DNA of 31,556 nucleotides from Kiritimatiellia bacterium (lineage in GTDB: Bacteria; Verrucomicrobiota; Kiritimatiellia; RFP12; UBA1067). Under the pieces are notes generated by a model. It was not told the origin of the DNA and did no database searches. It saw nothing but the letters and a program-made list of their open reading frames with translations. This document shows positions 6,455 through 20,703 of the stretch, one piece after another. The position numbers were made by a program, and so were the translations under genes. Position 1 is the first letter of the stretch, and every line of letters starts with the position of its first letter. The stretch covers positions 1-31,556 of the forward strand of contig JAGDAE010000205.1 of assembly GCA_017959645.1 (NCBI GenBank), given 5' to 3'.

Positions 6455-8779
6455 ATGACGACAAAAGCAACACTCGCGCTGTTTGCCGCCCTGGCGGCCG
6501 GTCTCGCCGTCGCGCAGGATATCGGCGCCGGCCTCAAGGACGCCGCAAGACCGTATTTCAGGTTCGGCACGACGCTCGACCGCCGGCTGATCCACCCCGA
6601 TACGCGCTCGGCCGCCGAACTCGAGGCGATAACCGGCACGTTCGACACGATCACGCCGGAGAACGAGCTCAAGCCCGAGCGTCTGCTGAAGGGGAATGGC
6701 GAGTACGATTTCTCCGACGCCGACCGCTTCGTCGAATTCGGCGAGAGCAACGCGATGAGGATCATCGGCCACTGCCTCGTCTGGCACATGCAGACGCCAG
6801 CGTGGATGCACACCGCCGCCGACGGAACGCCGCTGCCGCGCGAAGAGGCGATCGAAAACCTGCGCAGCCACATTATGACTGTCGTCGGCCGCTACCGGGG
6901 GCGGATATACGGCTGGGACGTCGTCAACGAAGCCTGGATGGAGGACGGCACGCTTCGCGACTGCGGGTGGAGGCGCGCCATCGGCGACGACTACATCGAG
7001 CTGGCGTTCCGCTTCGCGCACGAGGCCGACCCGGACTGCGAACTGTACTACAACGACTACGCGATGGCCGAGCGCGCGAAGTGCGACGCCATAATCGGGA
7101 TGGTCGGCGATCTGCGCGCGAAGGGGGTCAGGATCGACGCGGTCGGCTTCCAGACGCACGTGTCGCTCTGGTATCCGGATATTTCCGCCTACGCGAAGTC
7201 GATGGATGACATGATCGCCGCCGGGATACGCTTCAACGTCACCGAGATGGATGTCGGCGTGCTGCCCGATCCGGCCGGGGACGACCTCAAAAACCTGTAT
7301 CCGTCCGAGGGGTTGCCCGACGGCGTGCAAGCGCGCCTCACCGAGCGCTACACGGCTTTCTTCACGGAATTCCTGAAACGCCACGAATGGATCGACCGCG
7401 TGACGTTCTGGGGGGTTACCGACGCCCAGAGCTGGCTCAACTACTATCCGGTCAGAGGCAGGATCAACCATCCGCTTCTCTTCGACCGCCAGGCGAGAGC
7501 GAAGCCGGTCGTCGCCGCGCTGCACCGTCTTATGACGGGCTGGAAGAACCACGGGCCGGGAATGCGCGTGGCTGAGATGCCGAGAATAACCTCGCTCGAG
7601 GCGTTCGCCGAGCGCGCCCCAGCCGCGTTCACCGACAAGGCGATCGCGTACGCGAAAGACGCCGGCTACAACGCCGTCTTCGTCAACGGCGGGTGCGGAT
7701 TCGGCTCCGACGCGATGCCGCCGGAATCGCTGGCCGTCACCGGGGCGATTCCGGATCTGATGCCGTACACGGCCGAGCGCAACATACGCGAGCTCAAAGA
7801 GCGCATCCGCAGGCTGTCGGACGCGGGGATGAAGCCGTGGCTCTGCTGGTGGACCGGCGTCGGCACCGACGAGAAGGGCAATCTCACCGATCCGCCCAAC
7901 ATACGCAGCCGCCGCGAAATCTACGCCAAGTACCGCAAGAATCCCGAGCTGTTCGGCGCGGGGCCGTGGTGGCGCTGGCGCGGCAACCGTCCGCTGTGCA
8001 TATCCAACCCGAAGGTCAGGGAGTTCTACCGCGAACTGTTCAGCCGGTTGCCGAAGGACTTTCCCGAGCTGGAGGGGCTGTTCTTCTTCCCCGGCGACGC
8101 GGAACTGGAAAACTGCACCGACGAATGCGAGACGTGCCGCGCGAGCGGACTCGGCCGCGTCGGGCGCATGGTGCGCTTCGCGAACGAGATCTACGATGCG
8201 TGGAATTCCGCCGCCGACAAGAAGCGGGCGTTCTACTACGCGTTCTGGAATCTCGACCAGCCGGGCGGAGACGGGCAGATACTCTCGTCGGTTCTCGAAG
8301 AGACGCTCCCCAACCTCGCCGCAGGGATGGGAATCGCCATGTCGATATGCGACAACACCGTCGAACGCAGGGTAACCGGCGACATAATCCTCAACCAGCC
8401 GTGGGGAACCTGCAACTCGATCGGCTCGCTTTTCAGGGCCATGATCGACTCGCCGAACGCCAAGGGCCGTCCGGTGATGGCGGTCTCGGAGATAAGCCAG
8501 AGCGAGCTGTTCGATCCCGTGTGCGCGAACATGCCGTTCGCGGTGTCGACGCTCGAGCTGATGCACAACCTGCGCAAGATACCGAACTGCGACGCCGTGG
8601 TCGACTTCTGGGGGAACCGTCCCCCGTACGGGCTTTCCGACGCGTCGCACGAAGTCATGAAGGGGTTCATGGACGTCGAGATCTCCGGCGGGGAGTTCGA
8701 CGACGGGAAGATTCTGCTCGACGCGGCGGCCAGGCACTACGGCGACGCGGCGCTGGCCGAAAAGGGTGTGGCGGCGTGA
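6455..8779 (+). CDS. Secreted GH10 endo-beta-1,4-xylanase-like domain fused to an unassigned C-terminal domain
   Basis: Signal peptide, then GH10 motifs TPENELKP, GHCLVWH, WDVVNEA (acid/base), YYNDY, GFQTH, VTEMDV (nucleophile) and TFWGVTD up to ~7530. About 410 further residues follow. Confidence 0.88.
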   Translation: MTTKATLALFAALAAGLAVAQDIGAGLKDAARPYFRFGTTLDRRLIHPDTRSAAELEAITGTFDTITPENELKPERLLKGNGEYDFSDADRFVEFGESNAMRIIGHCLVWHMQTPAWMHTAADGTPLPREEAIENLRSHIMTVVGRYRGRIYGWDVVNEAWMEDGTLRDCGWRRAIGDDYIELAFRFAHEADPDCELYYNDYAMAERAKCDAIIGMVGDLRAKGVRIDAVGFQTHVSLWYPDISAYAKSMDDMIAAGIRFNVTEMDVGVLPDPAGDDLKNLYPSEGLPDGVQARLTERYTAFFTEFLKRHEWIDRVTFWGVTDAQSWLNYYPVRGRINHPLLFDRQARAKPVVAALHRLMTGWKNHGPGMRVAEMPRITSLEAFAERAPAAFTDKAIAYAKDAGYNAVFVNGGCGFGSDAMPPESLAVTGAIPDLMPYTAERNIRELKERIRRLSDAGMKPWLCWWTGVGTDEKGNLTDPPNIRSRREIYAKYRKNPELFGAGPWWRWRGNRPLCISNPKVREFYRELFSRLPKDFPELEGLFFFPGDAELENCTDECETCRASGLGRVGRMVRFANEIYDAWNSAADKKRAFYYAFWNLDQPGGDGQILSSVLEETLPNLAAGMGIAMSICDNTVERRVTGDIILNQPWGTCNSIGSLFRAMIDSPNAKGRPVMAVSEISQSELFDPVCANMPFAVSTLELMHNLRKIPNCDAVVDFWGNRPPYGLSDASHEVMKGFMDVEISGGEFDDGKILLDAAARHYGDAALAEKGVAA

Positions 8780-9358
8780 AAGAAGTTCGACCGGCTCTGC
8801 CGCGAATTTCCGCTGTGCGGCTGGGGCCAGCGCTTCAGCTTCGCCGTCGGGCGCACCGGCGCGCGCGGACCGCTCTACCTGCCTCTGGTTCCGCCGGCGA
8901 TGAAGTTCGGCGACTACACCTGGGCGAGACATCTTCTGTTCCAGGGCGACATGACCGCCGAGCGCTGCCACCGGCTGCAGCTGGAGGCGCTGCCCATGTA
9001 CGAAGAGTGCGCGAAGGCGTTTGACGAAATCGGAACCGTGCTCGCAAAGGACGAGGCGCTCAGGATACGGCTCGCCGGCAAGGTCAACGTCTCCATCGGC
9101 GCTTTCGTCCACGCGCAGGATCTCCACCGCGCCGGGCGTTTCGACGAACTCAGGAAAGTCGTCGAGGACGAATTGCGCAACCGCACCGACGAACTGATGA
9201 TGTCGTTCGACCTCCTGCCGGGATCGGGGGTGAACAACATCGCCGTCGAGGAGGACATAGAGAACATGGCGCTGTATCTCTCTGATCCGCAGTTCCCGGA
9301 TCCTCCGGACGAGCTTTTCAACTTCCAGCCGGATTTCGGCCACACCTACACGTTCTGA
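8780..9358 (+). pseudogene. In-frame continuation of the GH10 fusion beyond a single TGA (tracked only from ATG 8900)
   Basis: Same frame as 6455..8779 and open for 192 codons immediately after TGA 8777-8779. Codons in 8780-8899 end almost all in G/C, like the real genes. Confidence 0.7.
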
Positions 9359-9373
9359 CCGGAGGGCATCGGC

Positions 9374-10795
9374 ATGGATATCACCGGGTTTCGCGTTCTC
9401 GTTCTCGCTCTCGCCGTCCTGCCGGCGGCCGAATCGCCGGCGCTCGTCGCCAAGGTGTCCACTTTCGGCGAGCCGTGGTGCGACCTGCCGGCCGGCGAAT
9501 GCAAAGGCGGCGAGGCGACGGTGGAGATCGACGTTTCGCGCACGGAGCAGGAGATCGTCGGTTTCGGCTGCGCGGCGAGCGAACTCGGCTGGGAGGCGCT
9601 CGCGTGCCTTTCGGGTGCCGACCGCGCCGCAGTGTTCGATGAGCTGTGCCGGGATGGCGGCTTCACGGTGATTCGCACGCCGATCGGCGCGAGCGACTTC
9701 GCGCTCGACTACTATTCCCTCGACGACCACGACGGCGATTTCGCGATGGAGGGCTTTTCAATCGACGGCGATCGCCGGGCGCTGATACCGCTGCTCAAGG
9801 AATTCGCCGCCAGAATCCCGCCGGACGTTCTCAAGATATGGGCGTCGCCTTGGTGTCCGCCGAGATGGATGAAAAAGACGGGGTGCTATGCGTCGCGTCC
9901 GCCGTGGGACGGGGGCGAACCCAACGACTGCCTGGAAGAGTCGAGGGTGTACGAGGGCGAAGACGGTTTCAACTGCGACGAGGCGCATTTTCGCGCGTAT
10001 GCGCTGTATTTCCGCAAGTACGCGGACGCGATGCGCGCCGAGGGCCTGCCGATAGCGTGGGTGATGCCGCAGAACGAGCCGAACAGCGCCCAGCCGTATC
10101 CGAGCTGCACCTGGAAAAGCGCTTCGCTCGCGCGTTTTACTCTCGACTATCTGTGCCCGGCCATGGAGGGAAGCGGAACTTCGGTGATGCTGGGCACTAT
10201 CGAGCGGCGGTCGATGGAGCTTCCGGACGCGGTACTGTCCGATCCCGCCAACCGCGCGAAGATAGCCGGCGCCGGTTTCCAGTGGGAGGGCAAAGAGGCG
10301 CTCGTGCCGGTCAAAAAGCGCTATCCTGACGTGTTTCTCGTGGGCACGGAGCAGGAATGCGGCGACGGCGCCAACGACTACGCACACGCGCGCCACTGCT
10401 GGGAATTGATGTGCCATTATTTCGAACACGGCGTGTCGGTGTACGAATACTGGAACATCGCGCTGAAAACCGGCTCGGTCTCGCGCTGGGGCTGGAGGCA
10501 GAACTCTCTCGTCAGTGTCGACCCGGAAAATGCGAGTTTTTCGTTCAATTTCGAATACTACGTGCTTAAGCATCTGTCGGCTTTCGTCAAGCGCGGGGCC
10601 AGGCGGCTCGCCGCCGGCGGCGATTACGGCGACGCGCTCGCGTTCGTCAATCCCGACGGTTCGGTCGTGGTCGCGCTGGGCAACGATTCCGCCGGTTCCG
10701 TCGCCGTCGCGGTGTGCGGAAAGCGCGTCGATCTGCCGGCGAAGTCGATCGCCACCGTGGTTCTCGGAGAATGCGATCTGGCAGCTTGGAAATGA
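9374..10795 (+). CDS. Secreted GH30 glycoside hydrolase (glucosylceramidase/beta-xylosidase-like)
   Basis: Signal-like N-terminus, RTPIGASDFA, WASPWCPPRWMK, QNEP (acid/base), TEQECGDG (nucleophile), YEYWNIAL, YYVLKHLSAFVK. Confidence 0.9.
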   Translation: MDITGFRVLVLALAVLPAAESPALVAKVSTFGEPWCDLPAGECKGGEATVEIDVSRTEQEIVGFGCAASELGWEALACLSGADRAAVFDELCRDGGFTVIRTPIGASDFALDYYSLDDHDGDFAMEGFSIDGDRRALIPLLKEFAARIPPDVLKIWASPWCPPRWMKKTGCYASRPPWDGGEPNDCLEESRVYEGEDGFNCDEAHFRAYALYFRKYADAMRAEGLPIAWVMPQNEPNSAQPYPSCTWKSASLARFTLDYLCPAMEGSGTSVMLGTIERRSMELPDAVLSDPANRAKIAGAGFQWEGKEALVPVKKRYPDVFLVGTEQECGDGANDYAHARHCWELMCHYFEHGVSVYEYWNIALKTGSVSRWGWRQNSLVSVDPENASFSFNFEYYVLKHLSAFVKRGARRLAAGGDYGDALAFVNPDGSVVVALGNDSAGSVAVAVCGKRVDLPAKSIATVVLGECDLAAWK

Positions 10796-10818
10796 AACCG
10801 TAATAACAGGACAGGGTC

Positions 10819-12585
10819 ATGAAAAAAACGCTTCCGCTTTTCGCCGCAACGCTGCTGCCGCTCGCCGGTTTCGCGCTCGAGATGCCTTTCAGCGTGCGCG
10901 GCTCGTACATGGCGATATCCGCGCATTCGGAGAACGACTGGGGGGCGGAGCACCAGTCCGGAGTGTGGATACGCAACGTGTCCAACGCCGCGAACAGCCA
11001 GTATGTCGCGAGGATAATTCCGGTTTCCGGCGCCGGGCATCTCGAGGTCACGGACTTTGCCGAAAGCCCGGAGAAGCTTACCCTGAAGACCTCCGCCGGG
11101 GACATCGAAGTCGCGTTCGCCGACGAAGACACGATTCTCCTGCGGTCGGAAAACGTCGGCATCCGTCTCGACTTCTGGCACAAGACGTGGTGGCACTTCA
11201 TCTGGGAGAAGCCGTCCGCCGCCGGCAGGACCGTGGGTGTGGCGACGCTTTACGAGAACGGCGCCAAGATCGTAGTCGATGCGCGCCGGGGGGCGAAACG
11301 CGTCGACAGCAGCTGGATAGAGGGGCACGGAGCCGCCGGCGCGGCGTTCGAGGCCTGGAACGAGGGCGACGGCGTCGAGATCGCCCTCAAGGATTTCCGC
11401 TACGACTGGGACGGTTCGCTGCCCGGGACTTCCTTCGACGAGGCGCTCGCCAGGCAGCGCGCCTCTTTCGCTTCGTTCCTCGACGCGATGCCGACGGTTC
11501 CGGACGAGTTCGAAAACGCGCGCGTCCGCGCCGCGCGCCTGCTCTGGAGCTCGATCGTCGCGCCGCGCAACCAGCTCAAGCGCGAGGGCATGCTGATGTC
11601 CAAGAACTGGATGAACCACATATGGAGCTGGGACCACTGCTTCAACGCGATGGCGCTCGCCTACGGCGGCGAGAGCGAATGCGCCTGGGACCAGTTCATC
11701 GGAATGTTCGATTTCCAGGCTCCGAACGGGCAGCTGCCGGATTCGATGGACGCGTACACGTCGACCTACGCTTTCGTGAAACCGCCGGTCCACGGCTGGG
11801 CGTTCGCGCGCATGATGAAGACGATGCCGCTCGATCGCGACCGGCTGGCGGAGGCGTACGGCAAGCTTGCGAAATGGACGCAGTATTGGCTCGTCTGCCG
11901 CGACAGCGACCGCAACGGGCTTTGCGAATACGATCACGGCAACGATTCCGGCTGGGACAATTCGACCGTATTTCTGGAGATGCCGCCGCTCGAAACGCCG
12001 GAGCTCGCCGCCTACCTGACGGTCCAGATGGACGTTCTCGCCGATCTTGCCGCGCGGCTCGGTCTTGATGGCGAGGCCGCAGGATGGAAGGCAAAGGCCG
12101 ACGCCATGGCAGCGAAGGCGACAGAGATTCTCTTCGACGCCGACGGAGCCCCGCGCTTTCGCCGCATGCTCGACGGGAGTTTCCATACATGCGATTCGAT
12201 GCTCCTGCGCATGGGAATGATTCTCGGCGGGCGGCTGCCGGCGCACATCCGCGAAAAGCTGCTCGCCGAAGTGTCGTCGGAGAAATTCCTCACCAGGTTC
12301 GGCCTGGCCACCGAATCTCCGTCGAGCGGGCGCTACGATCCGGACGGATACTGGCGCGGCCCGATCTGGGCGCCGGAGATGATGATCGCGATCGACGGCG
12401 TTCGCGCCTGCGGCGACGAAGTTCTCGCCCGCGAACTGGCGCTCAGGTTCTGCCGGATGTGCGACAAGGGTGGTTTCGCCGAGAATTTCGACGCGCTCAC
12501 CGGCGCTCCGCTCCGCGACAAGGCGTATACCTGGACCGCATCCGCTTTTCTCGTCGTCGCCCACGAACTGGAAGGGCGGAAATGA
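10819..12585 (+). CDS. Secreted GH63/MGH1-like (alpha/alpha)6-barrel glycosidase
   Basis: Signal peptide MKKTLPLFAATLLPLAGFA. Motifs IWSWDHCF, NDSGWDNS, YWRGPIW and AENFDALTG are typical of GH63/trehalase-like inverting enzymes. Confidence 0.82.
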   Translation: MKKTLPLFAATLLPLAGFALEMPFSVRGSYMAISAHSENDWGAEHQSGVWIRNVSNAANSQYVARIIPVSGAGHLEVTDFAESPEKLTLKTSAGDIEVAFADEDTILLRSENVGIRLDFWHKTWWHFIWEKPSAAGRTVGVATLYENGAKIVVDARRGAKRVDSSWIEGHGAAGAAFEAWNEGDGVEIALKDFRYDWDGSLPGTSFDEALARQRASFASFLDAMPTVPDEFENARVRAARLLWSSIVAPRNQLKREGMLMSKNWMNHIWSWDHCFNAMALAYGGESECAWDQFIGMFDFQAPNGQLPDSMDAYTSTYAFVKPPVHGWAFARMMKTMPLDRDRLAEAYGKLAKWTQYWLVCRDSDRNGLCEYDHGNDSGWDNSTVFLEMPPLETPELAAYLTVQMDVLADLAARLGLDGEAAGWKAKADAMAAKATEILFDADGAPRFRRMLDGSFHTCDSMLLRMGMILGGRLPAHIREKLLAEVSSEKFLTRFGLATESPSSGRYDPDGYWRGPIWAPEMMIAIDGVRACGDEVLARELALRFCRMCDKGGFAENFDALTGAPLRDKAYTWTASAFLVVAHELEGRK

Positions 12586-12637: not shown

Positions 12638-13057
12638 ATGGGAAACTTCAAGACGATAGACGATGCGAGGGAGTATTTTTCGCGCGACCGTTTCGCGACG
12701 GAGAACGGCATCTCCCTCGATGAACTGGACGCGGAACGCTCCGTCGCGAGCATGACGATATGCGAGCGGCACCGCAATGCGTTCGGCGGCGTGATGGGCG
12801 GCGCGATATTCACGCTTGCCGATTTCGCGTTCGCCGCGCTCACCAACGACCGCGAACGGCTGACCGTCGCCCAGCAGACGAGCGTGAACTATCTCTCGCC
12901 GGCCAAAGGGGGGCGGCTGATCGCGACGGCCCGCTACAAAAAGGACGGACGGAATTCGTGCGTGGTCAACGTCGACGTGGCCGACGACACCGGCCGCGCG
13001 ATTGCCCAGTTCGTCGGCACCGGATTCAAACTCGATGCGAAAGGAGCGGATAGATGA
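12638..13057 (+). CDS. PaaI-family (hotdog-fold) thioesterase
   Basis: RBS AAAGGA before ATG 12638, within ORF 12470..13057. HRNAFGGVMGGAIFTLADFAFA motif; 139 aa. Confidence 0.88.
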   Translation: MGNFKTIDDAREYFSRDRFATENGISLDELDAERSVASMTICERHRNAFGGVMGGAIFTLADFAFAALTNDRERLTVAQQTSVNYLSPAKGGRLIATARYKKDGRNSCVVNVDVADDTGRAIAQFVGTGFKLDAKGADR

Positions 13058-13512
13058 AGATCGTGCAGACGATGGCGGTCGCCGCATTCGCGGCGGCGCT
13101 TGCCGGGTGCGCGTCGACCGGTCCGGCGTTCCGCGAACACAAAGGAGCGACGGAGGTTTCGGTTACCGAACTCGCGCGCACGTCGCAGAGTTGGGACGGC
13201 GTGGAACTGCCCGATTACCCGGCCGGACGCCCGGAACTCGTGATCAGGCGCTACGTGTTCCCCGGCGGCAGCAGGCTCGGCTGGCATCATCATCCCGTCA
13301 TGAACTACGGCATCGTGCAGCAGGGGGAACTGACGATCGTCGGACTGGATGGGAAGGAGAAGACCGTCAGGGCCGGCGAAGCGGTGGTAGAGATGGTCGG
13401 GACGATCCACCATGGGGAGAATCGCGGCGACAAGGCCGTCGTTCTGGACATGTTCTACATTTCGAGGAAGGACGAACCGCTCGCTGTCCAGCATCCAGAA
13501 ATCGGCCAATGA
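13054..13512 (+). CDS. Cupin-domain lipoprotein
   Basis: Lipobox LAG-C at Cys19. Cupin motifs GWHHHPVMNYG..QGEL and EMVGTIHHGEN. ATGA overlap with the upstream gene. Confidence 0.85.
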   Translation: MKIVQTMAVAAFAAALAGCASTGPAFREHKGATEVSVTELARTSQSWDGVELPDYPAGRPELVIRRYVFPGGSRLGWHHHPVMNYGIVQQGELTIVGLDGKEKTVRAGEAVVEMVGTIHHGENRGDKAVVLDMFYISRKDEPLAVQHPEIGQ

Positions 13513-13591
13513 CCGGGGCGTCGCGGCATGAATCGATGGTATAGGTTGAGGTTATGGGTCGGCTGAAAGATTTCCGATTGTCCTTTGGCCG

Positions 13592-13615
13592 GCGGGATGT
13601 GATACAATATCCCGC
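13592..13615 (+). promoter_or_regulatory. cysK promoter (extended -10 TGA-TACAAT) embedded in a 7-bp inverted repeat
   Basis: GCGGGAT-GTGATACAAT-ATCCCGC, with TACAAT at 13603-13608. RBS AAAGGAG precedes ATG 13657. Confidence 0.6.
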
Positions 13616-13656
13616 GTCAACCGAAAACGGCCGTCGGGCCGAGAAAGGAGCATAAA

Positions 13657-14580
13657 ATGGGCAAAGCTGCAAAGAATATTCTGGAGAAAGTGGGCGGAAC
13701 CCCGCTTGTCGAAATCTCCGGAAAACTGAACAAAGGCGGGGCGAAAGTTCTCGCCAAGGTCGAATTTTTCAATCCGGGCGGCAGCGTCAAGGACCGTATC
13801 GCGCTCGCGATGGTCGAGGCGGCGGAGAAGGACGGAACCCTGAAGCCCGGCGCGACGATCATCGAGCCGACCAGCGGCAACACCGGCGTGGGACTGGCGC
13901 TGGTCAGTGCGGTGAAGGGCTACCATCTCGTGCTGACGATGCCGGAGACGATGTCGATCGAGCGCCGCAAGCTCGCCGCGGCGTACGGTGCGGAAATCGT
14001 CCTCACGCCAGGCGCAGAGGGGATGAAGGGCGCGATCGCCAAGGCGGAGGCGCTTCGCGAGTCCACTCCTGGCGCGGTGATCCTGCAGCAGTTCGAGAAT
14101 CCGGCCAATCCGGCCAAGCACGAGGCGACGACGGGCCCGGAAATCTGGGCGGACACCGATGGCGAAGTCGCCGCTTTCGTGTCTGGCGTCGGAACCGGCG
14201 GCACGCTCTCCGGCGCGGGGCGCTACCTCAAGTCGAAGAATCCGGAAATCAAGATCTTCGCGGTCGAGCCGGATACCAGCCCGGTGCTCTCGGAAGGCAA
14301 GGCCGGTCCGCACAAGATACAGGGAATCGGCGCGGGGTTCGTGCCCAAGACTCTCGACACTTCCGTCTACGACGAAGTGGTCAAGGTCAGCGCCGAGAAC
14401 GCCGGCGCGGCCGCGCGCGCGGCGGCGGCGAACGACGGGCTGCTGGTCGGTATCTCGTCCGGAGCCGCCTTGTGGACCGCGCTGGAGCTTTCGAAGCGGC
14501 CGGAGTTCGCCGGCAAGACGATAGTCGCGCTTCTGCCCGACACCGGCGAGAGGTATCTATCGACCTGGCTGTTCGAATAG
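13657..14580 (+). CDS. cysK: Cysteine synthase A (O-acetylserine sulfhydrylase)
   Basis: PLP lysine motif NPGGSVKDRIA, EPTSGNTG, GVGTGGT, HKIQGIGAGF, PDTGERYLST. Confidence 0.97.
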   Translation: MGKAAKNILEKVGGTPLVEISGKLNKGGAKVLAKVEFFNPGGSVKDRIALAMVEAAEKDGTLKPGATIIEPTSGNTGVGLALVSAVKGYHLVLTMPETMSIERRKLAAAYGAEIVLTPGAEGMKGAIAKAEALRESTPGAVILQQFENPANPAKHEATTGPEIWADTDGEVAAFVSGVGTGGTLSGAGRYLKSKNPEIKIFAVEPDTSPVLSEGKAGPHKIQGIGAGFVPKTLDTSVYDEVVKVSAENAGAAARAAAANDGLLVGISSGAALWTALELSKRPEFAGKTIVALLPDTGERYLSTWLFE

Positions 14581-15656
14581 TGTCTCCGCTGCTGGAGAAG
14601 GCGGCCGCCAAGCCGCTCGCGCTGACGCGCCGGGAACTGGCCGGGATTCTGGCCTGGCCCGACGCGGAAGCCCTTTTTTCGGCAGCATATGCGGTGAAAA
14701 TCCGCGAAATCGGGCGCGCCGTATCCTTCAGAGGCCTGATAGAGTTCTCCAACATCTGCGCCAAAGACTGCTTCTACTGCGGAATCAGAAAAAGCAATGC
14801 CGGGACGAACCGCTACCGGATGGACGCGGACGAGATCGTGCGCGAGGCTAGATGGGCGTTCGACGCCGGGTACGGCAGCATTGTTCTGCAGTCGGGGGAG
14901 ATCGAGAGCGAGGAGAATACGGAATTCGTCGAGAACGTCCTCAGGCGCATACGGGCGTTCGGCGGCGACGGGTTCGGGGTTACTGCGAGCCTCGGCGAAC
15001 AGACGGAAGAAACCTACCGCCGCTGGCGCGAGGCGGGAGCGCACCGGTATCTGCTCAGGATCGAGACGTCGAATCCCGCGCTTTACGCGAAACTGCATCC
15101 TGCCAGCCATTCGTGGGAACGGCGCCGCGATTGCCTTCGCGCGCTGAGGCGCTGCGGATACCAGGTCGGAAGCGGGGTGATGGCCGGGCTGCCCGGGCAG
15201 ACGCTGGACGATCTTGCCGCAGATATCGAATTCTTCGCCGCCGAAGATCTGGACATGATCGGAATGGGGCCGTACGTACCCCACTCCGGAACGCCGCTCG
15301 GCAAAGACGCGCCATGGACGCCGCAGGTGCGTAAAGAGCGGCTGGAACTCGGGTTGCGGATGATCGCGGCGACCCGGCTCTATCTGCACGACGTCAACAT
15401 CGCGGCGGCAACCGCATTGCAGGCAATCGACCCGGAGGGACGCGAGAAGGGGCTTCTCGCCGGAGCCAACGTGATCATGCCGAACATGACCGGCGCGCGC
15501 TATCGCGCAGACTACCGGCTCTACGACGGCAAGCCGTGCGTCGGGGAAGACGCGGAGACGTGCCGAGACTGCATCGGACGGCGCATTGCCGCTCTCGGCG
15601 AGACGGTGCTTACGAACGCGAGAGGCGATTCTCCGCATTGGAGGAAACGATGGTGA
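14580..15656 (+). CDS. hydE: [FeFe]-hydrogenase maturase HydE-like radical SAM enzyme
   Basis: GTG 14580 overlaps the cysK stop. RGLIEFSNIC, CxxxCxxC (CAKDCFYC), YLLRIET, DMIGMGPY, GANVIMPN, YRLYDGK, and a C-terminal CX7CX2C (CVGEDAETCRDC). Confidence 0.85.
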   Translation: MSPLLEKAAAKPLALTRRELAGILAWPDAEALFSAAYAVKIREIGRAVSFRGLIEFSNICAKDCFYCGIRKSNAGTNRYRMDADEIVREARWAFDAGYGSIVLQSGEIESEENTEFVENVLRRIRAFGGDGFGVTASLGEQTEETYRRWREAGAHRYLLRIETSNPALYAKLHPASHSWERRRDCLRALRRCGYQVGSGVMAGLPGQTLDDLAADIEFFAAEDLDMIGMGPYVPHSGTPLGKDAPWTPQVRKERLELGLRMIAATRLYLHDVNIAAATALQAIDPEGREKGLLAGANVIMPNMTGARYRADYRLYDGKPCVGEDAETCRDCIGRRIAALGETVLTNARGDSPHWRKRW

Positions 15657-17386
15657 ACGAGGAAGGAATATCCCGAGAGGAGGCACTGGCGCTGCTGAAG
15701 CCGGAGCGCCGGGCGGAACTGCGCGAACGGGCGCACGCGACGACGCTCGCCTGCGTCGAAAAACGGTTCGATTTCTGTTCGATAATCAATGCGCGATCGG
15801 GAGGCTGCACCGAAGACTGCAAATGGTGCGCACAGTCCGCACGCTGGAAAACCGGCTGCGAAACCTACGGCTGGGTCGGCGCCAAGGCGTGCGTAGAGGC
15901 GGCCAGGGCGGCAGAAGCGAACGGCGCCGATAGGATAGGCATCGTCACTTCCGGACGGCGCCTTTCGCCCGGCGACGTCGAAAAAGTCTGCGAGGCGCTG
16001 CGCGAAATGCGCAAGGCGACGGATATCGGCCTTTGCGGTTCGCTGGGTCTGCTCTCCGAAGAGGATCTCGTCCGGTTCAAGGCGGCTGGGTTGCAGCGCG
16101 TGCATTGCAACATCGAGACCGCGCCGTCGCTTTTTCCGTCGCTCTGCTCCACGCATGCGACTGGGGACAAGCTCAAGACGATCCGGGCGGCGAAGCGGCT
16201 AGGGTTCCAGATATGCTGCGGCGGCATAATCGGCATGGGCGAAAGCGACGAGCAGCTGGTCGAATTCGCATTTGCCCTCAAAGAGATCGCGCCTGATTCG
16301 ATTCCGGTGAACGTTCTGCATCCGGTAGAGGGAACACCGCTCGGGAACAATGGTATTCCAGACCCCGAGCGCGTAATCGATTCGGTGGCCATTCTGCGGC
16401 TCGTAAACCCATCGACGCCGCTGCGTTTCGCGGGCGGCAGGCGGGACATGTCGGACGAAACGGCGGCGAAGTGCGTCTACGTTGGAATGTCGGCCGGCAT
16501 CGCAGGTCCGCTGCTGACGACGCCGGGCGCCGATTTCGACGACGACCGGGAACTAGCCGTGCGCGCTGGCTATGCCGTCGGCGGAGGGAGCGCGGCCAAA
16601 CTTGAACGCCTGCGCGCCGCATTGCGCGAAGCGGGCAGCGCCGTCGTCGCATTCTCGGCCGGCGTCGATTCGACTTTCCTCCTGCGCGTCGCCAAAGACG
16701 AGCTCGCAGACCGCGTCGTCGCCGCGACAATACGCTCGCCAGCGATGCCGGCACGGGAGATTGAAGAGGCGGTTGCATTCTGCCGCGCGGAGAAGATACG
16801 CCATGAAATCGTCGATATCGACGAGCTTGCGGTGCCAGGATTCGCGGAGAATACGCCGGAGCGATGCTATTTCTGCAAGAAGGCGGTGTTCGAAAGGATT
16901 CTCGAACTTGCGAGACGGAACGGAATCGGAAAGGTGCTGGAGGGGTCGAATCTCGACGACGATCGCGACTGGCGTCCAGGCCGGCGCGCGATCGCAGAGC
17001 TTGGCATCGGAAGCCCGCTCCGCGATGCGAGACTGACGAAAGCGGAAATCCGCCAACTTTCAAAGCGGCTCGGGCTTGCGACCGCCGGTAAGCCGTCGTT
17101 CGCCTGTCTCGCCTCGCGTTTTCCGTATGGCGAACGCATAACCGCGGCCGGACTTGAACGGGTGGAAAAGGCGGAGCGATGGCTCCTCGGCGCCGGGTTC
17201 GGACTTTCCCAGTTGCGCGTGCGTTCGCACGGGAACATGGCCCGTATAGAAGTTCCGACTCCGGACATTCCGCGTCTCGCTGCCAAAGCGGGCGAAATCG
17301 CCGTCGCGCTGGAGAGATTGGGGTTCGCATATGTTTCGCTCGATCTGCGGGGCTATCGCTCTGGCAGCATGAACGAGACGCTGTAG
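15650..17386 (+). CDS. bioB: Biotin synthase BioB (aa ~1-310) fused to LarE-type ATP-dependent sulfur transferase (aa ~317-578)
   Basis: BioB half: SIINARSGGCTEDCKWCAQS, LCGSLG, CCGGIIGMGE, SIPVN, LRFAGGR, LLTT. LarE half: PP-loop AFSAGVDS, RCYFCK, GSNLDD..DWRPG, KPSFACLASRFPYG, QLRVRSH, GYRSGSMN. No stop lies between the halves. Confidence 0.92.
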   Translation: MVNEEGISREEALALLKPERRAELRERAHATTLACVEKRFDFCSIINARSGGCTEDCKWCAQSARWKTGCETYGWVGAKACVEAARAAEANGADRIGIVTSGRRLSPGDVEKVCEALREMRKATDIGLCGSLGLLSEEDLVRFKAAGLQRVHCNIETAPSLFPSLCSTHATGDKLKTIRAAKRLGFQICCGGIIGMGESDEQLVEFAFALKEIAPDSIPVNVLHPVEGTPLGNNGIPDPERVIDSVAILRLVNPSTPLRFAGGRRDMSDETAAKCVYVGMSAGIAGPLLTTPGADFDDDRELAVRAGYAVGGGSAAKLERLRAALREAGSAVVAFSAGVDSTFLLRVAKDELADRVVAATIRSPAMPAREIEEAVAFCRAEKIRHEIVDIDELAVPGFAENTPERCYFCKKAVFERILELARRNGIGKVLEGSNLDDDRDWRPGRRAIAELGIGSPLRDARLTKAEIRQLSKRLGLATAGKPSFACLASRFPYGERITAAGLERVEKAERWLLGAGFGLSQLRVRSHGNMARIEVPTPDIPRLAAKAGEIAVALERLGFAYVSLDLRGYRSGSMNETL

Positions 17387-17413
17387 CCAATCCGTCGTGG
17401 ATCCGGGAAGACG

Positions 17414-18877
17414 ATGAAACGGTTTTGCGAGGTGGAGAAGATGCTGGCGGCGCGCAAGCCCGACGGAGCGCCGCGCGGCAGGTTCTCGCCCGGCGATACG
17501 GTCGGCGAATGGAGCATATGCGCTTTTCTCGGGCGCGGACTTTCCGCCGAAGTCTACCGCGTCGTCAATCTGCGCTTCGGACAGGAGGGCGCGCTCAAGC
17601 TGCTTGTCGACGGCTCGCGCGGACTTCGCGAGCGGTTTGAGACCGAGTCGGACGCGATACGCTTTCTGTCGATGAGGACCTTGCCGCGGTTCATGGGGTC
17701 CGGCGAGGTCGGCGGCGCGCCGTACTATGTGATGGAATATCTCCGCCCGCTCCCCGATCCGATGCCGCGCCGCGAGATTCCGAAATTCATGAATGGGGTC
17801 GCGAAGGCGCTGCAGATGCTTCACGACGCGGGATATATCCACCGCGATCTCAAGCCCGGCAACGTTCTGGTGAGGGCGAACGGAGAGCCGGTTCTGATCG
17901 ATCTCGGACTGATCAAGCGGCGCGGCGAGGCGGTCGGCGATCCGATAGTCAGGCACGGACGCAATATCTCCATAATCGACGGCAAGCCGGTCGGCGTCGG
18001 CACGCTGGACTACGCCGCGCCCGAACAGCTTCTGCGTGGCGAAGCATCGGTGCAGAGCGACGTGTTCGCGCTGGGAAAGATGCTGATGGCGCTCTACGGC
18101 GGCAGACCTCCGCGCAGCGTCAGGCCAGTAATCAGATGCGCGACGAGGGAGCATCCGTCCGACCGGTACTGTTCGGCGGACGAATTCGCGACGGCGCTCC
18201 GGCACCGCAACTATTCGCGCATGGCTTTCGCGCTGATGGGCGCTACCGCGCTCGCCGCCGCCGCGCTTTTCCCGCTCTTCTGGCCGCATGTCGCCAGATT
18301 TCTGGTTCCGCTGCTCAATTCTCCGGAGCAGGTCCTCACGATCAGACAAAGGCCGGACGAGTCGGAAGCGGCGTATTTCTCGCGGATGCTCTCCCGCGCT
18401 CGGAATGGCGATTCCCAAGCGCAGATCGCGGTCGCCGAGGCGCATTTCTACGGGCGCGGCACGCCGACGAACCGCGTCGCCGCGGTAGAGTGGTACCGAA
18501 CGGCGGCGGAAGCCGGCGAAACCGATGCGCAGGCGTCGCTTGGGCTTTGCCTGTTTAGGGGGATTGGCTGCGAAAAGAACTCCGTACAGGCGGTGAAGTG
18601 GTGGAAAGCCGCCGCTGAGAAAGGCAATCTCAGCGCGATGAACGACTACGCATTCTGTCTGATGCACGGCTTCGGAGTCGGCAGAGACGTCGATGCGGCG
18701 TTCAAGTGGGCGCTGTCCGCGGCGGTGCGCGGACACGCGCCGTCGCAGACATTTGTCGGCGAATGCTATATCGACGGCCGCGGCGTGGAAAAAGACATCG
18801 ATCGCGGCGAAACATGGCTCTATCGCGCCGCCAGACAGGGCAACAAGAGAGCGCAGACGCTGCTCGAAACGAGATAA
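17414..18877 (+). CDS. Hanks-type Ser/Thr kinase with transmembrane helix and four Sel1-like repeats
   Basis: LGRGLSAEVY, ALK, HRDLKPGNV, IDLG, GTLDYAAPEQ, SDVFALG; hydrophobic ALMGATALAAAALFPLFW; four repeats of the A-x5-G-x-G-x6-A-x-x-W-x3-AA-x-x-G type. Confidence 0.9.
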   Translation: MKRFCEVEKMLAARKPDGAPRGRFSPGDTVGEWSICAFLGRGLSAEVYRVVNLRFGQEGALKLLVDGSRGLRERFETESDAIRFLSMRTLPRFMGSGEVGGAPYYVMEYLRPLPDPMPRREIPKFMNGVAKALQMLHDAGYIHRDLKPGNVLVRANGEPVLIDLGLIKRRGEAVGDPIVRHGRNISIIDGKPVGVGTLDYAAPEQLLRGEASVQSDVFALGKMLMALYGGRPPRSVRPVIRCATREHPSDRYCSADEFATALRHRNYSRMAFALMGATALAAAALFPLFWPHVARFLVPLLNSPEQVLTIRQRPDESEAAYFSRMLSRARNGDSQAQIAVAEAHFYGRGTPTNRVAAVEWYRTAAEAGETDAQASLGLCLFRGIGCEKNSVQAVKWWKAAAEKGNLSAMNDYAFCLMHGFGVGRDVDAAFKWALSAAVRGHAPSQTFVGECYIDGRGVEKDIDRGETWLYRAARQGNKRAQTLLETR

Positions 18878-18908
18878 TCGTCGAAGCGGTGCGGACGTTT
18901 GCCGCAGT

Positions 18909-18945
18909 TTCCCGCCCACGCAGGCGGCAAAATATGATACAATAC
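18909..18945 (+). promoter_or_regulatory. Putative sigma70 promoter of thrS (extended -10 TGA-TACAAT)
   Basis: AAATATGATACAATAC; 31/37 ungapped identity to the purB upstream segment. RBS AAGGAG precedes ATG 18964. Confidence 0.7.
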
Positions 18946-18963
18946 ACGCTTTCAAGGAGATTT

Positions 18964-20703
18964 ATGGCGGAAATTACAGAAGAAATGAGAAGGCACTCGG
19001 CGGCGCATCTGACTGCGCGCGCCGTGCAGAACGTTTTCGAGAACGTGCAGGTCGACATCGGACCCGCCACGGAGGACGGATTCTACTACGATTTCGATCT
19101 GGAGCATCGAATTTCACCCGAGGATTTCCCGAAGATCGAGGCGGAGATCGCGCGGCTTGTTGCGCTCGTCGAGCCGTTCGTGCGCAAGACCGTCTCCCGC
19201 GACGAATGCGCGAAACTGCTCGAGGGCCAGAAGTACAAACTCGAACGCCTCGGCGACATTCCGGAAGGCGAGGACATCTCGATCTACACCGTCGGCGACT
19301 ATGTCGAGATGTGCCGCGGTCCGCATGTGGAACACTCCGCCCAGATCGGGGTCGTCAAGCTTACGCGTGTAGCCGGCAGCTACTACCGCGGCGACGAGAA
19401 GAACAAGATGCTCCAGCGCGTGTACGGGATCGTCGCGAAGGACAAGGCCGAACTGGATGCGATAATGGCCCGCGAGGAAGAAGCCAGAAAACGCGACCAT
19501 CGCGTGCTCGGCAGACAGCTTGAACTTTTTGCGATAACCGAAAGCGTCGGACCGGGTCTCGCGCACTGGCTGCCGAAGGGCGCTCGCATCCGCGTGGCGA
19601 TCGAAGAATACTGGCGGCGCAAGCACTACGAGGCCGGCTACGAGATCGTGTACACTCCGCACGTCGGGCGCTCCAACCTCTGGCAGACGTCGGGGCATCT
19701 CGGTTTCTACCGGGAGGGGATGTTCCCGAGCATGAAAGTGCAGGAGGGGTCGGGGAACGACGCGTACATAGAAGAGTACTACGTCAAGCCGATGAACTGT
19801 CCGTTCCACATCCAGATATACCAGTTCAAGAAGCGCTCGTACAGGGATCTGCCGATGCGCCTTGCCGAGCTGGGGACGGTGTATCGCTACGAGAAGGACG
19901 GCGTCAGGCACGGACTGTTCCGCGTGCGCGGCTTCACCCAGGACGACGCGCACATTTTCTGCACGCCCGGGCAGATCGTGCAGGAGATAAGGGATACGGT
20001 CAGGTTCGCGAAGGGGATGCTCGGCAAATTCGGCTTCAGCGAGATCCAGGCGTATCTTTCGACGAAGCCGGAGAAGGCAGTCGGCGACCCCGAACGTTGG
20101 GAGCAGGCGACGCAGTCGCTGCGCGACGCGCTCGAGCAGGAGGGGATGTCCTACGAAGTCGACGAAGGCGGCGGGGCTTTCTACGGGCCGAAGATCGACA
20201 TGAAGATCAAGGATGCTCTCGGGCGGCCGTGGCAGCTGGGGACGGTGCAGTTCGATTTCAATCTGCCCGAGAGGTTCGATCTCTCGTACGTCGGCGCGGA
20301 CGGCAAGGAGCACCGGCCGTACATGGTGCACCGCGCGCTGCTCGGGTCGATAGAAAGGTTTTTCGGAATCTTGATCGAGCACTATGCCGGTGCGTTTCCG
20401 CTCTGGCTGGCGCCGGAGCAGGTCAGGATACTGCCGATTTCGGACAAGGCGCTCGACTATGCGCGGAAAGTCCAGTCGGGTCTGCGCGAGGCGGGTCTGC
20501 GGGTCGATATCGACCTGTCGGCCGAGAAACTCGGCGCGAAGATCCGCGAAGCATCTCTTCAGAAGATACCGTATCAAGTCGTGGTGGGTCCGCGCGACGA
20601 GGCGGCGGAGACGGTCTCCGTCAGATCCCGGAGCGAGGGCGACCTCGGCGCCATGAAGCTTCCCGAATTCGTCGCGAAGCTGCGGGCGGAGACGGCCTTG
20701 TGA
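18964..20703 (+). CDS. thrS: Threonyl-tRNA synthetase (579 aa, no N-terminal TGS domain)
   Basis: Editing motifs RHSAAHL and MCRGPHV; KPMNCPFH, RVRGFTQDDAH, YGPKID, QFDFNLPERF, HRALLGSIERF; anticodon-binding domain. Confidence 0.97.
   Translation: MAEITEEMRRHSAAHLTARAVQNVFENVQVDIGPATEDGFYYDFDLEHRISPEDFPKIEAEIARLVALVEPFVRKTVSRDECAKLLEGQKYKLERLGDIPEGEDISIYTVGDYVEMCRGPHVEHSAQIGVVKLTRVAGSYYRGDEKNKMLQRVYGIVAKDKAELDAIMAREEEARKRDHRVLGRQLELFAITESVGPGLAHWLPKGARIRVAIEEYWRRKHYEAGYEIVYTPHVGRSNLWQTSGHLGFYREGMFPSMKVQEGSGNDAYIEEYYVKPMNCPFHIQIYQFKKRSYRDLPMRLAELGTVYRYEKDGVRHGLFRVRGFTQDDAHIFCTPGQIVQEIRDTVRFAKGMLGKFGFSEIQAYLSTKPEKAVGDPERWEQATQSLRDALEQEGMSYEVDEGGGAFYGPKIDMKIKDALGRPWQLGTVQFDFNLPERFDLSYVGADGKEHRPYMVHRALLGSIERFFGILIEHYAGAFPLWLAPEQVRILPISDKALDYARKVQSGLREAGLRVDIDLSAEKLGAKIREASLQKIPYQVVVGPRDEAAETVSVRSRSEGDLGAMKLPEFVAKLRAETAL

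Follow-up and report, generated by a model that had tools for sequence, protein, structure and literature searches.

In the Type II biotin synthase of Blautia obeum (boBioB), an auxiliary [4Fe-5S] cluster is held by Cys52, Cys138, Cys198 and Arg268, and Ser106, which is not given as a cluster ligand, replaces the Cys97 of the Escherichia coli enzyme (PMC10813225). The source of the fifth sulfide in Type II enzymes is unknown: sulfide gave no multiple turnovers, and several searches by comparative genomics turned up no helper gene (Lachowicz et al. 2024, PMC10813225). In the sulfur transferase LarE of Thermotoga maritima, three cysteines bind a [4Fe-4S] cluster, sulfane sulfur is accepted from IscS, a [4Fe-5S] species is formed and the enzyme is catalytic (Chatterjee et al., PMC9283937). 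Here we describe a gene, bioB::larE, that encodes both kinds of enzyme in a single polypeptide. It lies on a contig of 31,556 nt (JAGDAE010000205.1 of assembly GCA_017959645.1, C184 in our numbering; hereafter the window, meaning this stretch at its full length) from a Kiritimatiellia genome recovered from ruminant gut metagenomes (1.97 Mb in 306 contigs, 76% complete). We propose, with a probability of about 0.62, that its product is one protein with two independent sulfur insertases, which perform their usual reactions and draw on a common sulfur supply. No new chemistry is proposed for the fusion.

The gene and its parts occupy the following positions.

15650-17386, + strand: bioB::larE fusion gene, a single open frame of 578 residues plus a stop codon (17384-17386)
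15650-16579, + strand: biotin synthase domain, radical S-adenosylmethionine (SAM) plus BATS (TIGR00433, 335.9 bits)
16580-16597, + strand: linker GGGSAA, six residues (311-316), from the translation
16598-17383, + strand: LarE domain, a PP-loop ATP pyrophosphatase (TIGR00268, 313.4 bits)

A GGAGGA Shine-Dalgarno sequence is found 4 nt before the ATG at 15650. Translation confirmed what the first-pass annotation, made from the letters of the window, had reported about the junction, namely the glycine-rich linker and the absence of both a stop codon and a methionine around it. That annotation had taken the gene for a true in-frame fusion, to be checked in reads over 16560-16620. Logan contigs from four runs, each of a different study, were aligned to positions 15600-17450; what was compared is assembler output and not raw reads, and it is independent of the window's assembly. 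The contigs differed from the window by substitutions only, with 0 inserted or deleted letters and no stop at the junction, which was bridged by contigs in X2 (record 9), X3 (record 23) and X1 (record 7). X2 record 9 covered all of 15600-17450 with four substitutions, X7 record 30 began at 16553, and the stretch was present in many public cattle and sheep gut metagenome runs, the four used here among them. The single open frame, the family matches of both halves and the junction-intact contigs confirmed that bioB::larE is a genuine in-frame fusion.

An artefact of assembly or sequencing, with two separate genes in the real genome, might still be suspected from a metagenome-assembled source as fragmented as this one and from the many relatives that keep the two genes separate. 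Separate genes in close relatives had been named in advance as an observation that would speak against the fusion; they do exist, but other relatives are fused, so that no artefact is shown by them. Independently assembled contigs from four studies agree over the junction without an indel, and ten further fused protein clusters were found. We therefore rejected an artefact, which is almost certainly not the explanation.

Residues 7-308 of the protein match the bioB model TIGR00433 well above its equivalog cut-off of 225 bits, and this half also matches the Pfam families Radical_SAM (59 bits) and BATS (65 bits). The CxxxCxxC motif of the radical SAM cluster is C53/C57/C60. Among solved structures the closest were 8vdw and 8vcw, both at ~215 bits, with the E. 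coli structure 1r30 at 150 bits. Auxiliary ligands were mapped on an alignment with 8vcw, which is numbered as boBioB is in PMC10813225. C43, C129, C189 and R259 correspond to boBioB C52, C138, C198 and R268, giving the complete Type II ligand set, and all four residues were invariant among 39 relatives. The Cys97 of Type I BioB (the [2Fe-2S], E. coli type) is lacking, as the first-pass annotation had noticed, and the alignment with 1r30 places G97 at this position; the Ser that defines Type II there is likewise replaced by Gly, a variant called "Type G". The ligand standing in for C97 is C43, in the sequence FDFCSII and equivalent to boBioB C52. It had been overlooked at first, and the cysteines of the ICCGG motif had been described as extra; the first of these, C189, corresponds to E. 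coli C188 and boBioB C198 and is therefore a ligand, not an additional cysteine.

Residues 317-575 match the LarE model TIGR00268 at positions 2-259 of 259 (equivalog cut-off 150 bits). The PP-loop reads S336-A-G-V-D-S341, with its S, G, D and S invariant among 61 relatives, and the same holds for C406 and C409, which form a CxxC pair, and for C486. This half also aligned end to end with the sacrificial LarE of Lactiplantibacillus plantarum (residues 315-578 to 5-267 of structure 5udq, 156 bits; likewise structure 6b2o). C486 aligns with the sacrificial Cys176 of that enzyme, whereas the CxxC pair is missing from it (W and A in the alignment), and it gives up the sulfur of its own cysteine. 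All three cysteines that mark the [4Fe-4S]-dependent LarE class are present here, namely the CxxC pair and the Cys176 equivalent. To judge from these residues, the LarE half should be catalytic through its cluster and not sacrificial. Family-model matches and residue mapping together upheld the initial view that both halves are full-length and carry their catalytic motifs.

As we picture it, the BioB domain would be an anaerobe-type biotin synthase, with the radical SAM [4Fe-4S] cluster and a Type II-like auxiliary site made of three cysteines and an arginine. By analogy with solved relatives, this site would hold a [4Fe-5S] cluster that gives up its extra sulfide to dethiobiotin. The other domain would be a [4Fe-4S]-dependent LarE, and both domains are predicted to bind a sulfide at the iron left free in a three-cysteine [4Fe-4S] cluster and to spend it as a non-core sulfide. 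Each would serve its own pathway, bioA/bioD on one side and larB/larC on the other, both encoded elsewhere in the genome. The benefit of joining them would probably lie in co-expression, in drawing on one cysteine- or sulfide-derived donor, and in common upkeep of the Fe-S clusters.

The genome holds the partners that these pathways call for. Adjacent larB (277.5 bits) and larC (206.5 bits) genes were found on contig C175 and adjacent bioA (498 bits) and bioD (146 bits) genes on contig C170, though the window itself has no lar or other bio genes, as had been stated correctly from its sequence. The fusion carries the sole LarE and the sole BioB found in the genome, and a cysteine-desulfurase-like gene lies on contig C126. 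Co-occurrence was examined in 61 genomes, the fusion's own and 60 relatives (36 congeners and 24 members of other families within its order). Searches detected LarE in 31 of the 61 genomes and LarC in 27, all of which have LarE, so that LarC accompanied LarE in 27/31 genomes and occurred in 0/30 genomes without it; these genomes are related and often incomplete, and here as below the counts are a description of this sample, with no statistical test implied. BioB was found in 24/61 genomes and BioD in 23/61, with both in 21. LarE and BioB were found together in 16 genomes, LarE only in 15 and BioB only in 8, among them those of three congeners with 91-93% completeness (G009, G013 and G032), in which BioB and BioD were found and LarE was not. 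LarE and BioB are thus not mutually dependent across the 61 genomes. LarE tracks LarC and BioB tracks BioD, and therefore each domain follows its own pathway. An earlier suggestion that LarE might be repurposed for another substrate found no support, given the larB-larC and bioA-bioD pairs in the genome and the tracking of LarC by LarE.

To see how the two domains are arranged in relatives, we compared fused and unfused homologues. A whole-protein search returned ten other fused protein clusters of 582-641 residues together with hundreds of single-domain BioBs of ~318 residues (76-85% identity). Nine of the ten fused clusters (P0003-P0007 and P0009-P0012) have the order LarE-BioB, and the BioB-LarE order of the window recurs only in P0008. 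In the unfused relatives G003, G006, G011, G021 and G052, larE precedes bioB at a distance of 50 bp to 2.3 kb, within settings such as cysK-x-larE-x-bioB (G003) and cysK-pdxS-pdxT-larE-x-bioB (G021). A CysK 85-87% identical to that of the window adjoins larE/bioB in these last two genomes. In G008, G012, G016, G053, G057 and G058, larE instead lies beside larC.

Trees of the BioB and LarE domains agree. Both place the window's protein within its genus clade and P0008 outside it, grouped with strong support with G052, an unfused relative of larE-bioB order, and in both the LarE-BioB fusions are interspersed with unfused homologues. The linkers are unrelated in length and sequence (GGGSAA, TPPPARA, HGII, TTREK/TMSEK, KRAE, a stretch of ~47 residues, and others). 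Because of the placements of the window's protein and of P0008/G052, and because the linkers are not homologous, the fusions appear to have separate origins: we read the BioB-LarE order as having arisen at least twice and the LarE-BioB order about five or more times. The long linker, in the LarE-BioB protein P0009 (residues about 279-325, ~47 residues), holds a direct repeat of a 17-residue peptide. The P0012 fusion was found on 24 contigs and that of P0011 on 5, and therefore these are not one-off errors.

The fusions occupy varied surroundings. In P0004 the gene lies between glnA and gltB. In P0008 (locus L018) it lies downstream of genes for a heavy-metal P-type ATPase and a DsbD_2/FtrD-like protein, and in P0012 (L106/L107) it has hypA and a cobW/hypB-like GTPase gene upstream and a cation-efflux gene downstream; the metal-handling genes flanking P0012 and P0008 may relate to nickel supply for the pincer cofactor. 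The P0011 fusion has a PALP-family (cysK-like) gene 13 nt upstream, and that of P0010 lies in a cluster of Rrf2, PALP-family and Cys-Met-PLP enzyme genes. A cysK or PALP-family gene thus stands by the BioB/LarE pair in G003, G021, P0010, P0011 and the window, and this recurring neighbour fits a sulfur donor shared by the two domains. As separate observations, an Amidohydro_2-family gene (Pfam; L018 1020-1742) lies ~5.4 kb upstream of the P0008 fusion on the same contig, and the open reading frame between larE and bioB in G003 (L010 4937-5716) has a C-terminal motif that resembles Amidohydro_2 by eye only.

Several points weigh against two independent insertases on one sulfur supply. "Type G" BioB variants have not been characterised biochemically (PMC10813225). 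The LarA family (PF09861), the user of the nickel-pincer cofactor, gave no match in this 76%-complete genome; LarA-family genes are present in relatives G003, G006 and G011. The cluster types, the activities and the reason for fusing are things we infer from sequence. The two pathways are also unrelated and have no obvious need of their enzymes in a 1:1 ratio, and simple co-expression explains repeated fusion in two orders only weakly, which leaves room for physical or functional coupling of the domains.

One form that such coupling could take, in line with the sulfur or Fe-S reloading between the domains that the first-pass annotation had raised, is a sulfide relay. In the cell LarE, fused or separate, would take up sulfane sulfur or sulfide on its three-cysteine [4Fe-4S] cluster and load it onto the auxiliary [4Fe-4S] cluster of the Type II-like BioB, restoring [4Fe-5S] after every turnover, besides its nickel-pincer role. 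In favour of a relay are repeated independent fusion in both orders through unrelated short linkers and a neighbourhood kept through rearrangements. The sulfur chemistry of T. maritima LarE, which takes sulfane sulfur from IscS and forms [4Fe-5S] (PMC9283937), would suit the task, and the Type II enzymes have a sulfur source that is unknown and that comparative-genomic searches for a helper failed to reveal (PMC10813225). On the other side, LarE tracks LarC, not BioB, with BioB and BioD found and LarE not found in the three nearly complete congeners named above. BioB also lay within 6 kb in only 1 of 80 LarE loci of other phyla, and Type II BioB is near-universal in obligate anaerobes, far beyond this lineage (PMC10813225). 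These points, that is the BioB genomes lacking LarE, the near-universal Type II enzyme and the lineage-limited linkage, count against a relay as a general rule, and we regard it as unlikely. A neutral accident, in which neighbouring genes are joined by small indels without benefit and fusions are gained and lost through drift, appears less likely still. It would account for the interleaving of fused and unfused forms among close relatives, such as the fused P0003 beside P0013 and P0018, of single-domain length, in the BioB tree, for the ~318-residue BioB of most close relatives, and for the many unrelated partners to which LarE is fused in other lineages. However, the BioB-LarE order requires a change of gene order as well as a junction, yet by our reading it arose twice; fusions such as P0012 and P0011 persist over contigs and samples; and the pair remains linked in several different genomic settings.

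Finally, the radical SAM half might be a BioB-like sulfur insertase for a substrate other than biotin, partnering LarE in an unknown pathway. The Gly at the C97 position, which puts this half in an uncharacterised class, would permit this, no other bio genes adjoin the fusion, and certain proteins annotated as BioB are lipoyl synthases (LipS1/LipS2). The BioB model, however, scored 336 bits (cut-off 225) against 40 bits for LipS2 and 17.5 bits for LipS1, no other BioB was found in the genome, which also carries bioA and bioD, and BioB presence tracks that of BioD among relatives. We consider a non-biotin substrate very improbable. Two independent sulfur insertases with a common supply remain the reading that we favour.

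We also asked how widespread the association is. Within 6 kb of the 80 LarE loci, which come from many other phyla, genes for LarB were found at 23, LarC at 19, CysK at 11 and BioB at 1. The CysK homologues, 55-61% identical to the window's, occurred at L038, L039, L041, L046, L050, L061, L064, L070, L074, L100 and L105, directly upstream of LarE in L061, L070 and L100; this suggests a wider cysK-larE link. Fusion partners of LarE elsewhere (proteins P0123-P0234) include LarB (AIRC), LarC, MnmA-like tRNA thiolase domains with or without rhodanese, HAD phosphatases, ThiF, MOSC and DUF4186. In a close relative, P0126 (689 residues), LarE is fused to a class I/II aminotransferase, a Pfam family that includes BioF. 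A representative library of 1.84 billion proteins gave no match to both halves among the best 150 hits, where clustering at 50% identity may hide fusions under single-domain representatives. P0268, P0274 and P0343 (754-783 residues) are other BioB fusions, with an N-terminal BioB domain of ~41-42% identity and a remainder that has no match to LarE. With BioB near one LarE locus in 80 and no two-half match among those hits, the BioB/LarE architecture is rare and confined to one order as far as searched. The first-pass annotation did not know it as a described architecture, and indeed no paper describing a BioB-LarE fusion was found in the literature searched. Both enzyme families are known, and their fusion is a new domain architecture.

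In the window the fusion gene is the third of an overlapping array (13657-17386), cysK-hydE-bioB::larE, whose first two members are as follows.

13657-14580, + strand: cysK-like pyridoxal-phosphate (PLP) enzyme of the cysteine synthase family, first in the array (Pfam PALP, 245.8 bits)
14580-15656, + strand: hydE, the radical SAM maturase of [FeFe]-hydrogenase (TIGR03956, 322 bits, cut-off 254.6)

The likely GTG start of hydE at 14580 shares one base with the cysK stop (TAGTG, 14578-14582), and the hydE stop overlaps the ATG of the fusion gene (ATGGTGA, 15650-15656). This array puts a cysteine synthase together with enzymes that serve the H-cluster, biotin and the nickel-pincer nucleotide, three different cofactors dependent on sulfur or Fe-S. 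A search of the genome (76% complete) found no HydA. We considered whether the HydE-like enzyme might lack a hydrogenase system and gave up this idea, because hydG and hydF are present elsewhere in the same genome. On the same strand, 28 nt past the fusion gene, begins a gene (17414-18877) whose product has a Ser/Thr protein kinase domain and, after it, four Sel1 repeats. A series of glycoside hydrolase (GH) genes at 6455-12585 on the + strand (a GH10 xylanase-like protein of 774 residues, GH30 and MGH1-like) fits a plant-fibre-degrading gut bacterium. An Rfam scan of the whole window returned no riboswitch or other RNA family, and a promoter and terminator scan of 12800-19000 returned nothing exceeding shuffled expectation.

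The repeated tie between BioB and LarE offers a testable lead to the sulfur source of anaerobic biotin synthases. If a relay were true, the fusion would identify their missing sulfur supplier; even if the domains merely share a donor, it would provide a ready-made construct for the multiple-turnover question of BioB. If the coupling were co-expression only, it would stand as a rare domain architecture restricted to one lineage. In any of these cases the protein is also a member of the "Type G" class of BioB.

Compared with described enzymes, the BioB half shares with the Type II BioBs of Blautia obeum and Veillonella parvula (PMC10813225) the radical SAM plus BATS fold, the auxiliary ligand positions, the lack of Cys at the C97 position and an anaerobic host; it differs in having Gly and not Ser at the C97/S106 position, in extra invariant cysteines at 81 and 153, and in the fused LarE. 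The LarE half resembles the enzyme of T. maritima (PMC9283937) in its PP-loop, its three conserved cysteines (CxxC and the CLASR Cys) and the presence of LarB and LarC in the genome, whereas here it is a domain of a larger protein and is encoded apart from larB/larC, adjoining hydE and cysK. Among the related Kiritimatiellia fusions (P0003-P0007 and P0009-P0012) and neighbouring gene pairs (G003, G006, G011, G021 and G052), the same two enzymes are found at 60-85% identity per domain, often with cysK nearby, but in the opposite domain order or as separate genes. P0008 alone has the same order as the window's protein, and its origin appears to be a separate one.

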